This document shows positions 97-5,965 of a DNA stretch of 5,965 bases, piece by piece; the first letter of the stretch is position 1; each line of letters starts with the position of its first letter. The notes beneath the pieces were generated by a model. It made no database searches and was not told the DNA's origin. It worked only from the letters and a program-made list of their open reading frames with translations. Source of the DNA: a virus (Duplodnaviria; Heunggongvirae; Uroviricota; Caudoviricetes); the IMG/VR virus record IMGVR_UViG_2695420564_000014, positions 1 to 5,965 of that record. One strand, given 5' to 3'. The position numbers were made by a program, and so were the translations under genes.

Positions 97-223
97 GGGT
101 ACTGCTGATTTTAGACGACGATCGTTTTCATTTGAAAGACAACGTAAAAAGAAAATAGTCTTTTTTCCTCCATTTATTATTTAAGCTAATGTTAAAGCTC
201 TTCTTGTTCTTTTTNAAACCAAT

Positions 224-595
224 ATGATCGACGGTTATGAACTTACGCGCATAAAAATCAGACAGGACGTGGCGGTCAAAGGCCCGGCCACCTTTATCTC
301 CGGGAATAACCGGACAGAGCAGGCAACGGGTATCTATCTTATTGGCGCCGGAGACTGCATTCGCCTGGAATGCGGACTGAGCGCCCTGGAACTGTTTGCC
401 AGCGGGGCGATTCGTCTTGCCGGAGAGACATTCAATATTGCGGCCAGAGGCGATGGCGTGATCACAACTCAGGGAAAACTGGGCCTGAATCCTTCTTCAC
501 CGGGCGAACCGGCCACTCCGCCGGGCAAGGATTACAAAAAGGAACTCACCACGCTGGTGAGTCAACTGTTTCCCGAAAAGGATAAATCATCATGA
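224..595 (+). CDS. Hypothetical protein, 123 aa, unplaced; Gly-punctuated beta-strand-like repeats and a Pro/Lys-rich C-terminal tail
   Basis: ATG at 224 to TGA at 593-595, which overlaps the ATG at 592 of the next ORF (ATGA). No Shine-Dalgarno motif upstream. An in-frame TAA at 182-184 blocks upstream extension. Translation shows alternating hydrophobic stretches broken by Gly (GIYLIGAGDCIRLECGLSALELFASGAIRLAGETFNIAARGDGVITTQGK). Codon usage resembles the neighbouring genes. I do not recognise a family. Confidence 0.4.
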   Translation: MIDGYELTRIKIRQDVAVKGPATFISGNNRTEQATGIYLIGAGDCIRLECGLSALELFASGAIRLAGETFNIAARGDGVITTQGKLGLNPSSPGEPATPPGKDYKKELTTLVSQLFPEKDKSS

Positions 596-743
596 AAATC
601 TACCCTNTGATGTTTTGCTGGCGCTCATGTTGCTGGTCGGGCACTGGTACGAAAACCGGGAAAATTCCTCAGATGTCAGCAAGGCACCAGTCCCGTTTGG
701 TTTTTCTTCTCTGCTGGAGCCTTATCGTTTTATTCCTTTGTAG
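592..743 (+). pseudogene. Disrupted or gapped head-tail connector gene (gp6-like adaptor family); only the C-terminal ~44 codons are recognisable
   Basis: ATG at 592 (MKIYP) is followed by N at 607. Downstream the only sensible frame is a different one (609-743, ending TAG 741-743), translating DVLLALMLLVGHWYENREISSDVSKAPVPFGFSSLLEPYRFIPL, which resembles the C-terminus of gp6-like connector proteins. That frame has a TGA at 558-560, so it cannot extend upstream. The ORF-track reading 592-774 (MFCWRSCCWSG...) looks out of frame. Confidence 0.45.
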
Positions 744-751
744 GAGGAGAC

Positions 752-1090
752 ATGCAGGCGGGCAGATTACGTGATCGCGTAATTATTCTGAATGTCACCA
801 CCGCCCGCTCTCCGTCAGGGCATCCGGTGGAGACGGTGACGGAGGGAGCTACCGTATGGGCAGAAGTTAAGGGTATCAGCGGGAGGGAGATAATCTCAGA
901 CGGAGCAGAAACCGCTCAGGCTACGGTCAGAGTCTGGATGAGATTCCGGCGCGATGTGACAGCGACTTCACGTCTGAAAGTGCTGACCGGTGCATTTAAA
1001 GGGGCCATTCTGGGTATAGAAGGTCCACCAATACCGGATGCACGCGCTACCCGGCTTGAAATACTCTGCAGCCTGAAGGGGAATGTGTGA
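752..1090 (+). CDS. Phage head closure / head-tail joining protein (SPP1 gp16-like, Phage_H_T_join family)
   Basis: ATG at 752 with AGGAGGA Shine-Dalgarno at 742-748. The 112-aa product has the RDRV...VWAEV...VRVWMRFRRDV pattern typical of this family, and the gene sits in the expected position after the connector. Confidence 0.8.
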   Translation: MQAGRLRDRVIILNVTTARSPSGHPVETVTEGATVWAEVKGISGREIISDGAETAQATVRVWMRFRRDVTATSRLKVLTGAFKGAILGIEGPPIPDARATRLEILCSLKGNV

Positions 1091-1536
1091 TGGATTTCAG
1101 TCTTGATTTTTCCGGCCTGGCGGATATTGCACGGGATTTGGAGACGCTCAGCAGGGCAGAAAACAATAAGGTTCTGCGCGATGCCACCCGTGCCGGTGCT
1201 GAAGTTATGCGGGATGCAGTTGTTGAACGTGCGCCGGAGCGAACCGGGAAACTGAAGAAAAATGTGGTTGTTCTCACTCAGCGTTCAAAGCGTCGGGGGG
1301 AAATTATCTCGGGTGTCCACATTCGCGGACGGAACCTGCGAACCGGAAACAGTGATAACAGCATGAAAGCCAGCGATCCCCGAAATGCATTTTACTGGCG
1401 CTTTGTGGAGCTGGGAACGATAAACATGCCCGCGCATCCATTCATTCGCCCGGCTTTCGATACGACAGAGGAGCTGGCGGCGCAGGTTGCCATACAGCGA
1501 ATGAATCAGGCTATTGATGAGGTCTTAAGTAAATGA
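1090..1536 (+). CDS. HK97 gp10-family phage protein (tail completion / neck component)
   Basis: ATG at 1090 overlaps the upstream TGA (1088-1090) as TGATG; a GTG at 1087 is an alternative start. AAGGGG Shine-Dalgarno at 1074-1079. Product begins MDFSLDFSGLADIARDLETLS, with size and position matching HK97 gp10-like proteins. Confidence 0.78.
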   Translation: MDFSLDFSGLADIARDLETLSRAENNKVLRDATRAGAEVMRDAVVERAPERTGKLKKNVVVLTQRSKRRGEIISGVHIRGRNLRTGNSDNSMKASDPRNAFYWRFVELGTINMPAHPFIRPAFDTTEELAAQVAIQRMNQAIDEVLSK

Positions 1537-1877
1537 GGGAGGCCACACTGTATTCCCTGTTGTCTCAGCTGGCCGGAGGACAGGTTTATCCTTATGTGGT
1601 CCCGCTGACGGAGGGAAAGCCTGCGGTATCTCCGCCGTGGCTGGTGTTTTCTGTGGTGTCTGACACGGTATCTGATGTGCTTGATGGGCAGGCTGAATCC
1701 AGAATTACCGTGCAGATCGATGTCTGGGCGACAGTACCTGATGACGCAGATAATATTCGTGAGCAGGCGCTTGATGCGGTAAGAAAACTGGCACCCTCCG
1801 TTATTTCTAAAACGCAGGGTTATGATCCTGACTCCCGTCTGAGCAGAGCCACGCTTGAATTCCAGGTAATAGCCTGA
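1533..1877 (+). CDS. Phage tail terminator / tail completion protein (gpU-like or DUF3168-like, about 114 aa)
   Basis: ATG at 1533 overlaps the upstream stop as ATGA (coupled translation); stop TGA at 1875-1877. It lies immediately upstream of the major tail protein gene, and its size and the motif VYPYVVP...WLVFSVVSD...ITVQIDVWA fit small tail-terminator proteins. Confidence 0.65.
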   Translation: MREATLYSLLSQLAGGQVYPYVVPLTEGKPAVSPPWLVFSVVSDTVSDVLDGQAESRITVQIDVWATVPDDADNIREQALDAVRKLAPSVISKTQGYDPDSRLSRATLEFQVIA

Positions 1878-1897
1878 GGTCATTAATGATTTTACCC

Positions 1898-1925
1898 ACC
1901 CGCCGCTGGCGGGTTTTTTTATTTT
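1898..1925 (+). terminator. Intrinsic-terminator-like hairpin plus T-tract between the tail terminator and major tail protein genes
   Basis: GC stem CCCGCC (1899-1904) pairs with GGCGGG (1908-1913) around a 3-nt loop, followed by TTTTTTTATTTT (1914-1925). Confidence 0.5.
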
Positions 1926-1937
1926 CAGGAGACGAGT

Positions 1938-2642
1938 ATGTCCTCTAATTTTGAGCGTTCGCAACTGACGAAAATTATGATTTCGTCTGCACCGGTAACA
2001 GCAGAAACCCTGGATTCTGCCAGCTATCTTGGCCTGAGCTGTACAATCAAAGAGGTGCAGTTTACCGCAGGACAAAAGCAGGATATTGATGTCACCACGC
2101 TGTGTTCTGTTGAGCAGGAAAATATTAACGGTCTTGGGGCTGCTTCAGAGATTTCCATGTCAGGCAACTTTTATCTGAATGCTGCCCAGAACGCGTTGCG
2201 CAGTGCCTATGACAATGACACCACGTATGGCTTTAAAGTTATTTTTCCGTCAGGCAACGGATTTACCTTTATGGCAGAGGTGCGTCAGCATACCTGGTCT
2301 GCAGGAACCAATGGTGTTGTGGCTGCAACGTTTTCTCTGCGCCTGAAAGGTAAGCCTGTGCTGACGACAGAGCCGCTGAAAGTGAGGGTCGATTTAAAAA
2401 GCACGCTGCGGGTTGCTTCCGGAGCGAAACTTGAAATGGCGGTTGAGGCTGTGGGTGGTGTGCCGCCTTATTCTTATGCCTGGAAAAAAGGTGGTTCTCC
2501 TGTTTCCGGACAGACGGCGGCAACGTTCAGTAAGGCATCAGCAGCATCCGGTGATGCCGGTGCGTATACCTGCGAGATTTCTGATTCAGCGAGCCCGGTT
2601 AACAAAGTGACCTCCACTTCCTGCACTGTAACCGTCAGTTAA
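1938..2642 (+). CDS. Major tail (tube) protein with a C-terminal Ig-like domain
   Basis: ATG at 1938 with AGGAGA Shine-Dalgarno at 1927-1932; 234 aa. The position directly upstream of the G/T chaperone pair is the canonical major tail protein slot. The C-terminal ~85 residues (VGGVPPYSYAWKKGG...GDAGAYTCEISDSASPVNKVTSTSCTVTVS) have the hallmarks of Big_2/I-set Ig-like domains. Confidence 0.82.
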   Translation: MSSNFERSQLTKIMISSAPVTAETLDSASYLGLSCTIKEVQFTAGQKQDIDVTTLCSVEQENINGLGAASEISMSGNFYLNAAQNALRSAYDNDTTYGFKVIFPSGNGFTFMAEVRQHTWSAGTNGVVAATFSLRLKGKPVLTTEPLKVRVDLKSTLRVASGAKLEMAVEAVGGVPPYSYAWKKGGSPVSGQTAATFSKASAASGDAGAYTCEISDSASPVNKVTSTSCTVTVS

Positions 2643-2656
2643 TGAGGATGGATGTG

Positions 2657-3028
2657 ATGACTAAAAATATCCGTAATCTGGCACTGGCAACGATGTCGGG
2701 GTTTCGCCATAAAACCGTTGATGTGCCTGAATGGGAGGGAGCAACGGTTGTGTTACGGGAACCTTCTGCAGAAGCCTGGTTGCGCTGGCAGGAGATCGTT
2801 AAAGCAAAAGATGATGAGACACCGTTATCCGTTGCGGAGCGCGCCCGCCGAAATCTGGAGGCAGATGTTGAACTGTTCATTGATGTTCTGTGTGATACCG
2901 GACTGCAACCCGTATTTTCAGAGGATGATCGTGAACAGGTGATTGCCGTGTATGGCCCGGTGCATGCGCGGCTTCTTCGGCAGTCTCTGGAATTGATCAG
3001 TGATGCCGGCGAGGTTAAAAAAAAGTAG
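2657..3028 (+). CDS. Tail assembly chaperone, lambda gpG analogue
   Basis: Preferred start ATG 2657, preceded by GAGGA at 2644-2648; alternative in-frame ATGs at 2642 (overlapping the upstream TAA as TAATG) and 2648. Ends GEVKKK with TAG at 3026-3028, directly after the slippery A-run. It is an acidic ~120-aa protein between the major tail and tape measure genes. Confidence 0.78.
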   Translation: MTKNIRNLALATMSGFRHKTVDVPEWEGATVVLREPSAEAWLRWQEIVKAKDDETPLSVAERARRNLEADVELFIDVLCDTGLQPVFSEDDREQVIAVYGPVHARLLRQSLELISDAGEVKKK

Positions 3029-3330
3029 CGCTTCCGGGGATGCGTTTTCTGATGATGCTGGCGCTCAGGATGGGGCGCACATTGTCAGAGTTACGCCGGG
3101 AAATGTCCGCATCAGAAATCATGATGTGGGCAGAATTTGACAGGTTCAGCCCGCTGGGGGACGAACGGGCTGATTTCCGGGCTGCCCAGATTGTTTCAGC
3201 TGTTTACGGTGCGCAGGGGGTCAAAGTGTCACTGAATGATGCGCTTCTTCAGTGGGAGAAGGAGCAGACAGAAGGCGCTTCAGATCCATTTGCCGGACTG
3301 GAAAATGCGCTTTTAATAGTGTCTCAGTGA
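2657..3330 (+). CDS. Tail assembly chaperone G-T fusion (gpGT analogue) made by -1 frameshifting at 3019-3025
   Basis: After a -1 slip, decoding continues GTA GCG CTT CCG GGG ATG CGT... (V A L P G M R F L M M...), the frame of ORF 3040-3330 (T-like, MRFLMMLALRMGRTLSELRREMSASEIMMWAEFDRF...). The T-like ORF has no Shine-Dalgarno motif of its own and lies exactly in the -1 frame of G. Confidence 0.62.
3019..3025 (+). other. Programmed -1 ribosomal frameshift slippery heptamer A AAA AAG (G to G-T)
   Basis: The heptamer is in phase with the G frame (AAA 3020-3022, AAG 3023-3025) inside an A8 run (3017-3024), 1 nt before the G stop. The -1 frame is open from here to TGA 3328-3330. Confidence 0.6.
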
Positions 3331-3338
3331 GTCAACAT

Positions 3339-3361
3339 AACCGCTTCGGCGGTTTTTTTTC
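3339..3361 (+). terminator. Intrinsic-terminator-like hairpin (TTCG tetraloop) plus T8 tract between the T-like ORF and the tape measure gene
   Basis: Stem ACCGC (3340-3344) pairs with GCGGT (3349-3353) around loop TTCG (3345-3348), followed by TTTTTTTT (3353-3360). It lies 9 nt after the T stop. Confidence 0.5.
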
Positions 3362-3370
3362 GTCCGGAGA

Positions 3371-5304
3371 ATGAGTGTGGCGACATTACGTGAACTGATT
3401 ATTAAAATCTCGGCAAACTCCCGGTCATTCCAGTCAGAGATCTCCCGGGCTTCGCGTATGGGGCAGGATTACTACCGCACCATGCAGAACGGAGGCCAAC
3501 AGTCTGCTGCTGCCTCCCGTGAAATGCGGCGTGCACTGGCAGAAGTGACGGATCAGATAAATACAGCTAAATCTTCGGCACTGAATATGGCGGGGGCATT
3601 TGCCGGGGCTTTTGCTACCGGTCATCTTATTTCTCTCGCCGATGAGTGGAATTCAGTAAATGCCCGTCTGAAGCAGGCCTCACAGTCCAGTGATGATTTT
3701 CAGGCATCACAGCGTGAATTAATGGCGATCAGCCAGAGAACGGGGACGGCGTTTTCTGATAACGCCAGCCTTTTTGCCCGTTCTGCATCTTCCATGCGGG
3801 AGTATGGTTACAGTTCTGAGGAGGTACTGAAAGTCACCGAGGCGATCTCCACGGGCCTGAAATTATCCGGTGCCAGTACAGCAGAAGCCAGTTCGGTGAT
3901 CATGCAGTTCAGTCAGGCACTGGCGCAGGGAGTGCTGCGCGGTGAAGAGTTTAACTCGGTGAATGAGAACGGCGATCGTGTTATTCGTGCGCTGGCTGCG
4001 GGAATGGGGGTTGCCCGTAAGGATCTGAAGGCCATGGCGGATAACGGAAAACTGACCGCCGATAAGGTTGTTCCTGCACTGATTAGTCAGCTTGGGGCGT
4101 TGCGTGATGAATATGCAGCAATGCCTGATACTGTTTCATCCTCTGCAACCAAAGTTGAAAACGCCTTTATGGCCTGGGTTGGTGGTGCGAACGAGGCAAG
4201 CGGAGTGACAAAGACACTCTCCGGTGTGCTGAATGGTGTTGCAGACAATATTGATACCGTGGCTGCTGCAGCTGGCGCACTGGTTGCCGTCGGGGTAGCC
4301 CGATATTTTGGCAATATGGCGTCGTCTGCTGGATCTGCAACTGCCGGATTAATTACTGCAGCCAGAAACGAAGTGGCTCTTGCTGAAGCGCAACTTCGGG
4401 GGACACAGATAGCAACCGCCAGGGCGCGTGCGGCGGTTTATCGTGCGCAACAGGCGGTTGTTGCTGCTCGCGGTACCGAAAGGCAGGCCGCAGCAGAAGC
4501 GAAGCTGACAGCTGCCCAGGCGTCACTTACCCGTAATATTGCGGCCAGAACAGCGGCACAGACAACGCTGAATACTGTCACGTCAGTGGGGAGTCGTCTG
4601 TTAAGTGGTGCGCTGGGGTTGGTTGGTGGTGTGCCGGGACTCGTCATGCTGGGGGCGACGGCCTGGTACACGATGTATCAGAATCAGGAGCAGGCCAGAG
4701 AATCTGCACGCCAGTATGCCGCAACAATCGACGAAATTCGCCAGAAAACGTCGGCAATGTCGCTTCCTGAAGCGTCAGATAATGAGGAAAAGACGCGGCA
4801 GGCACTTGATGAGCAAAACAGGTTAATTGACGAGCAGAAAAGTAAGATTAAATCCTTACAGGAAAAAATTGCTGGCTATCAGTATGTGCTGGCAAACCCG
4901 GGCTGGACAACCGATAACGGTTTTATGATTAACCACATGACGTCGGTAAAAACTGTCACAGAAGGGCTTGCAGAAGCAACAAATCAACTGGCAGTTGAAC
5001 AGTCCCGTCTCACACAAATGCAGGGCAAAGCGCAATCCATTCAGGATGTGCTTGCCGGGCTGGAGGAGCGACGGGTGGCGTTGATCCGTCAACAGGCCGC
5101 GGAACAAAACAAAGCGTATCAGTCCCTGTTGATCATGAATGGGCAGCATACCGAGTTTAATCGCCTTCTCGGGCTCGGTAATGAATTACTTCAGCAGCGA
5201 CAGGGGCTGGTGAATGTACCGTTACGGCTACCACAGGCAACCCTGGATGATAAACAGCAGACTGCACTGAATAACAGCGAGCGCGAACTGGCTCTGTCCC
5301 GCCT
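3371..5304 (+). CDS. Tail tape measure protein, lambda gpH-like, 3'-truncated at the N-run
   Basis: ATG at 3371 (alternative GTG at 3377 is better spaced from GGAG at 3366-3369). Product is Ala/Gln-rich with long predicted coiled coils, a glycine-rich hydrophobic segment (SGALGLVGGVPGLVMLGATAWY) and an N-terminal region typical of lambda-family tape measure proteins. It is the long ORF after G/T. Tape measure character ends at 5304 (NNSERELALSR). Confidence 0.8.
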
Positions 5305-5310
5305 NNNGGN
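5305..5310. other. Ambiguous-base run (NNNGGN) marking an apparent junction between phage and host sequence
   Basis: Flanking coding content is unrelated: tape measure coiled coil on the left, sufB 3' end on the right. Confidence 0.6.
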
Positions 5311-5473
5311 GGATCAACTGTTTTACTGCCTGCAACGCGGGATCAGCGAAGAAGACGCCATCTCAATGATTGTTAACGGTTTCTGCAAAGATGTTTTCTC
5401 GGAATTGCCGCTGGAATTTGCCGTTGAAGCACAAAAACTTCTCGCCATCAGTCTTGAACATAGCGTTGGATAA
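5311..5473 (+). CDS. sufB: 3' end of the Fe-S cluster assembly scaffold gene sufB (last ~53 codons)
   Basis: Translation [53 protein letters not shown], stop TAA at 5471-5473. This matches my recollection of the enterobacterial SufB C-terminus and parallels the SufD C-terminal motif. It is followed 9 nt later by sufC, as in the suf operon. Confidence 0.8.
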
Positions 5474-5482
5474 GGAATAAAC

Positions 5483-5844
5483 ATGTTAAGTATTAAAGAT
5501 TTACACGTCAGCGTGGAAGATAAAGCTATTCTGCGCGGATTAAGCCTCGACGTTCGTCCCGGCGAAGTTCACGCCATTATGGGGCCAAACGGTTCGGGGA
5601 AAAGTACCTTATCGGCAACACTTGCCGGGCGCGAAGATTATGAGGTAACGGGCGGCACGATTGAGTTTAAAGGTAAAGATTTGCTTGAGTTGTCGCCGGA
5701 AGATCGTGCAGGCGAAGGCATCTTTATGGCCTTTCAGTATCCGGTGGAAATTCCTGGCGTCAGTAACCAGTTTTTTCTGCAAACGGCACTTAATGCAGTG
5801 CGTAGCTATCGTGGTCAGGACGCGCTCGACCGCTTTGATTTTCA
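5483..5844 (+). CDS. sufC: 5' portion of the Fe-S cluster assembly ATPase gene sufC (first ~120 codons), interrupted by N bases
   Basis: ATG at 5483 with AAGGA Shine-Dalgarno at 5472-5476. Product MLSIKDLHVSVEDKAILRGLSLDV.PGEVHAIMGPNGSGKSTLSATLAGREDYEVTGG... contains the Walker A motif GPNGSGKST and closely matches E. coli SufC as I recall it, up to DRFDFQ at the N positions. Confidence 0.88.
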
Positions 5845-5853
5845 NATNGANNN

Positions 5854-5965
5854 CGCGCTTGGCAAACTCCAGGAACAAAATATCGATAGCCTGCGCAGCG
5901 ACCTGCGTGAAAAAGGCATCCCATATACCACCGTTCGTAAAGAAAATAACTACGGCCTGAGCATC
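5854..5965 (+). other. Unidentified coding-like fragment, in frame with sufC but not sufC; open to the window edge
   Basis: Translation ALGKLQEQNIDSLRSDLREKGIPYTTVRKENNYGLSI has no stop. SufC should continue with its ABC signature and Walker B region here, and this does not. I cannot place the family. Confidence 0.2.

Follow-up and report, generated by a model that had tools for sequence, protein, structure and literature searches.

A reading frame of 700 codons (3371–5473, plus strand) in the window, our term for the whole 5965 nt stretch analysed here, begins as a phage tape measure protein and ends as the C-terminus of SufB. Does this frame exist as a gene in a cell or a virion, or was it made when the sequence was assembled? 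The window is identical (100%) to the 3′-terminal 5965 nt of the GenBank WGS contig CCBU01000120.1 (GCA_000940615.1), which is 13,327 nt long, belongs to a draft Escherichia albertii assembly and was reached through an exact protein match to the 123-residue ORF at 224–595. The E. albertii origin is borne out by the piece of the window carrying sufB and sufC, which has 99.1% identity to the type strain of that species and 94.7% to each E. coli tested.

The two parts of the product match two separate native loci, in agreement with the initial annotation, which had described the frame as a tape measure gene joined in frame to the 3′ end of sufB. The upstream part matches TMP_3 (PF20155; residues 85–274, profile positions 2–191 of 192, E = 2e-58) and, up to nucleotide 5302, Phage_HK97_TLTM (PF06120; E = 7e-84); the latter match breaks off at the join, at profile position 246 of 295. 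In the downstream part, codons 5312–5470 match SUFBD_core, of which only profile positions 209–232 of 232 are present, and encode a protein sequence identical to that of E. coli SufB. The stop codon of sufB (5471–5473) is followed by the ATG of sufC at 5483, preserving the native 9 nt spacer found in E. coli, as had also been noted. Both flanks of the join are cut within a gene and within a domain, and the fusion is not a complete member of either the tape measure or the SufB family. A GTG at 3377 serves as the start both in the gene call of the source contig and in the RefSeq homologue, giving a product of 698 residues.

Nucleotides 5299–5320 read CCGCCT-NNNGGN-GGATCAACTG, with the run NNNGGN at 5305–5310, letter for letter as first reported. 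At this point the native tape measure gene reads CCGCCT TAAGGGGGA AGCGCG and E. albertii sufB reads CGTAT TGGCGAGGA TCAACTG; the window has CCGCCT NNNGGNGGA TCAACTG. The match to native tape measure DNA persists until 5313, and that to E. albertii sufB starts at 5309. The break that had been placed near 5304/5311 is therefore upheld and refined to a 9 nt switch zone, NNNGGNGGA, at 5305–5313 (12,667–12,675 of the source contig), across which tape measure and sufB stay in phase.

The natives share the pattern GxGGA at the switch and the reading frame is kept, and both features would suit a fusion formed in vivo, by a microhomology-mediated illegitimate rearrangement or a prophage-mediated event. 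We looked for the join in other sequences. A 606 nt query over it (5005–5610) was covered to at least 80% by none of 5426 complete genomes, all of them E. coli rather than E. albertii; the matches took in one half or the other, ending at 5313 or beginning at 5312, with the two flanks at separate loci and no genome spanning both. When a 108-residue junction peptide was compared with 5.8 billion protein-cluster representatives, a set that would not reveal a fusion present only as a non-representative member of a cluster, no representative covered both halves; the best score was 118 bits, and among the matches listed all were SufB-only or tape-measure-only and none had both Pfam domains. Homologues conserving the 700-residue protein as one unit, which the initial annotation had named as a finding that would overturn its reading, were thus found neither among the 5426 genomes nor among the representatives. 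The exact junction pattern gave no match in the GTDB species representatives or IMG/VR, which is weak evidence in that a literal N may not be matched and the source assembly probably lies outside those sets.

The tape measure/sufB join is one of four apparently false joins in the window, which consists of five colinear blocks, each matching a different, unlinked native locus. In 5′ to 3′ order these are a spacer from beside yjdM, the 3′ end of vgrG, prophage DNA, sufBC and secD, and none of the 5426 complete E. coli genomes covers 80% or more of the whole. The window contains 11 N (at 215, 607, 5305–5307, 5310, 5845, 5848 and 5851–5853), and all 11 fall into four clusters (215, 607, 5305–5310 and 5845–5853). 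Every block switch coincides with one of these clusters and the rest of the window is free of N. In a comparison with proxy references, nine of the 11 lie where the two native sequences differ; the exceptions are the N at 5305 and at 5852, where the proxy references agree. Some mismatch positions in the switch zones carry a called base instead. The initial annotation had recorded the cluster at 5305–5310 and missed the N-marked switches at 215, 607 and 5845–5853.

The prophage block (608–5313) forms a single alignment of 4706 nt, with 99.6–99.7% identity, to a lambda-like E. coli prophage (L001), running from the middle of a head-tail connector gene to about codon 645 of the tape measure gene. 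Its head-tail joining and tail genes (608–3330, plus strand), assigned from a 99.6% alignment to that prophage and its RefSeq annotation, comprise the 3′ part of the connector gene, head closure, HK97 gp10-like, gp17 tail completion and Ig-domain tail tube genes and the chaperone genes G and T. A slippery heptamer, A_AAA_AAG, occupies 3019–3025 and abuts the TAG that ends the tail chaperone gene (3026–3028); a −1 shift there opens the T frame (ORF 3040–3330) with no intervening stop, which we take to be the classic programmed G/GT frameshift arrangement of lambda. At 3339–3364, in the interval separating the T gene from the start of the tape measure gene, is a terminator-like hairpin, AACCGCTTCGGCGGTT, with a T run after it; this is the one match to the consensus, no more than shuffled sequences give.

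The tape measure gene itself (3377–5304, plus strand) comprises the first ∼642 of 1075 codons, judged from the homologue in the prophage and from Pfam. The native coding sequence occupies 6770–9997 of L001 (3228 nt, 1075 residues), and the similarity of the window stops at 8706 of that sequence, at about codon 645. About 60% of the native protein is retained, and the claim that the gene is 3′-truncated holds. Downstream of its tape measure gene the native prophage carries counterparts of lambda M, L, K, I and J; in the window the G and T chaperone genes are present upstream, and sufB, sufC and secD stand downstream in place of the tail genes. Lambdoid prophages meet host DNA at attachment sites at the prophage ends and not inside the tail module, and the position of the boundary here contradicts lambdoid integration.

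On the other side of the join, the sufB piece (5312–5473, plus strand) holds 53 codons and the stop and has 99.1% identity to E. albertii NBRC 107761 and 94.7% to E. coli. The same alignment continues into the 5′ part of sufC (5483–5844, plus strand), 120 of 248 codons covering ABC_tran profile positions 1–76 of 137. After a total of 533 nt (5312–5844) the sufBC piece ends in a false join of its own, once more in frame, to an internal part of secD. The switch zone (5845–5853) reads NATNGANNN, against native GGATTTGAT in sufC and TATGGACAC in secD; of its five N, four are at mismatch positions, and four further mismatch positions carry the secD base. The internal secD fragment (5854–5965, plus strand) extends to the end of the contig and is 98.2% identical to secD in all of the E. 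coli genomes. In the source contig this region appears as a gene call for a 161-residue sufC–secD hybrid that runs off the contig end.

These observations bear on the second half of the original proposal of a misjoin or gap. N often denote gaps in assemblies, and on that basis the prophage and sufB might be genuine neighbours in the right order, separated by a stretch that the assembly lacks. The N at the join are, however, mixed with called bases agreeing with one native sequence or with both, unlike a sized gap; the next piece runs for 533 nt and then gives way to secD, which no genome searched places beside suf; and the prophage would have to end inside its own tail genes. An ordinary scaffold gap is accordingly a most improbable account, and of the two proposals the misjoin is the one that stands.

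The 5′ end of the window repeats the pattern. Nucleotides 1–214 are a chromosomal spacer with 98.7% identity to the region next to yjdM in E. coli 14EC007; yjdM itself is on the minus strand immediately before the window begins, and the spacer is contiguous with yjdM/yjdN in the source contig. Similarity to each of the two native loci stops at 215, a single N where the natives differ (T versus G) and where the sequence passes into the middle of vgrG. Nucleotides 216–595 (plus strand) are the 3′ end of an E. albertii type VI secretion system vgrG, the last 123 of 650 codons. The exact 123-residue product (ORF 224–595), which has no Pfam match, clusters with 650-residue VgrG, and the cluster members among those listed are all from E. 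albertii; the vgrG DNA at 216–606 found no match in the 5426 complete E. coli genomes. The native context is vgrG–DcrB–Rhs (in loci L003 and L006–L008), the 650-residue VgrG gene preceding DcrB and the gene for a 1468-residue PAAR–Rhs toxin. Natively, vgrG is followed by a DcrB-family gene, of which the window retains the first five codons (592–606, plus strand) and stops short of the rest; five loci (L003 and L005–L008) continue into a 143-residue PF08786 gene. At 607, again a single N where the natives differ (T versus A), the sequence breaks off and resumes midway through the phage head-tail connector gene, with only TG common to both natives after it. This join is out of phase and creates a spurious 60-residue ORF at 592–774.

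The first of these joins, at 215, recurs in CDRK01000210.1, a contig of a sister assembly (GCA_000936005.1), at 5983–5992 of that sequence. There the 10 nt zone has N at eight of nine positions at which the natives differ; the window has one. The occurrence of the same join in two assemblies could reflect a real repeat boundary or an artefact that is deterministic in one pipeline. At the point corresponding to 607, the sister contig and four other genomes continue natively, and the sister contig carries further N-marked joins of the same style. A full-text literature search found no paper naming CCBU01, CDRK01 or either GCA accession. Two more joins lie upstream of the window in the source contig, where N at 606–607 (in glcA) and at 2185 (in guaC) of the upstream sequence (L004) mark breakpoints that no E. 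coli genome tested spans, and the join density in the contig is about one per 0.1–4.7 kb. The gene calls in this region are fragmentary, among them an IMPDH-family protein of 108 residues and an EF-Tu of 196 residues. A further isolated N is present at L004 position 4771.

The contig as a whole thus weighs on the in vivo reading. A strain with this arrangement would carry truncated sufB, sufC and secD within 700 nt and, on one and the same 13 kb contig, truncated pieces of glcA, guaC, vgrG and a tuf-like gene, and it would do so with ambiguous bases exactly at every join, a boundary inside the tail module, and a junction absent from the 5426 E. coli genomes and the protein-cluster representatives searched. 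Set against the shared GxGGA and the intact frame, this makes a genuine rearrangement in the strain very hard to credit. Equally slight is the chance that a subpopulation of cells, or packaged phage or transducing particles, carries the tape measure–SufB hybrid gene as real molecules.

The reading frame is, very probably, an artefact of assembly rather than a real gene, a judgement that we base on sequence comparison. The contig would be a chain of fragments from unlinked places in the genome, butted together at points that share at most a few bases. The N would represent unresolved consensus at positions to which reads or contig ends from both true loci contributed, and with reads from both loci feeding the consensus, N would be expected to fall mostly at native mismatches. 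The real prophage almost certainly has a full-length tape measure gene of ∼1075 codons followed by the usual lambda-like tail genes, and sufB, sufC and secD are almost certainly whole in the real chromosome. That the 700-codon frame stays open would be luck, a one-in-three chance, the fragment of sufB having landed in its native phase. Of the three joins between coding sequences, two are in phase (5305–5313 and 5845–5853, the one at 607 being the exception), and at a chance of one in three for each this is not significant.

We also considered a stricter rule, under which every native mismatch in a switch zone would be an N. It fits only approximately and was rejected. At the tape measure/sufB join three of the four N agree with it, falling where tape measure and sufB differ, and the misfits are 5305 (T in both natives) and 5308 (G versus C, called as G). 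The rule predicted that sufB would read AT plus a base other than T, then GGG GAG, before GATCAA, and the E. albertii type strain has ATT GGC GAG.

A variant of the artefact explanation would draw the blocks from two organisms, with E. coli contamination supplying the prophage and E. albertii the chromosomal blocks. The prophage block has 99.6–99.7% identity to E. coli prophages, and the chromosomal blocks diverge from E. coli at the level expected of E. albertii (94.7% for sufBC, 92% for guaC and 88–90% for glcA), the sufBC block reaching 99.1% to E. albertii itself. The contig showed no chromosomal piece resembling E. coli, however, and near-identical lambdoid prophages are commonly shared among closely related enterobacterial species. 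The contrast in identity between prophage and chromosome fits either a prophage shared across species or a mixed sample, and we regard a cross-organism origin of the chimera as unlikely.

The value of these results is one of data hygiene only. The 698- or 700-residue `tape measure protein' and the sufC–secD hybrid are false proteins that are now in public protein collections. A tail length estimated from the fused frame would be wrong, as the initial annotation had warned: with 698–700 residues in place of the native 1075, the estimate would be ∼35% too short. The contig, and apparently its sister assemblies, are unfit for inferring prophage boundaries, insertion sites or gene fusions, and clusters of isolated N offer a practical marker of false joins in these assemblies.

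The fusion is no biological novelty, and the real components behind it are ordinary: a tape measure gene of the lambda gpH type and the suf operon of E. albertii. The first ∼642 codons of the tape measure are 99.3–99.7% identical at the DNA level to the gpH-like tape measure genes of E. coli GTEN_24 (WP_069354183.1) and phage vB_EcoS-733R4 (gene H, 99.3%), and the upstream order of tail tube, chaperones G/T and tape measure is that of lambda gpH-like systems. Compared with these, the window lacks the last ∼433 codons and the M, L, K, I and J homologues, and has sufB in their place. Likewise, what remains of sufB (its last 53 codons) and of sufC (its first 120), with the 9 nt spacer, is colinear with the Escherichia sufABCDSE operon, whereas ∼440 codons from the start of sufB and ∼128 from the end of sufC are missing, and phage DNA and secD stand at the flanks in place of sufA and sufD. 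In its unlinked blocks, little or no homology at the joins, ambiguous bases, truncated genes and repeated joins, the contig resembles other chimeric contigs in draft bacterial assemblies. Misjoins are more usually marked by long runs of N; the joins here differ from the usual kind in being unusually dense and in consisting of zones of 1–9 nt in which N and called bases are mixed.
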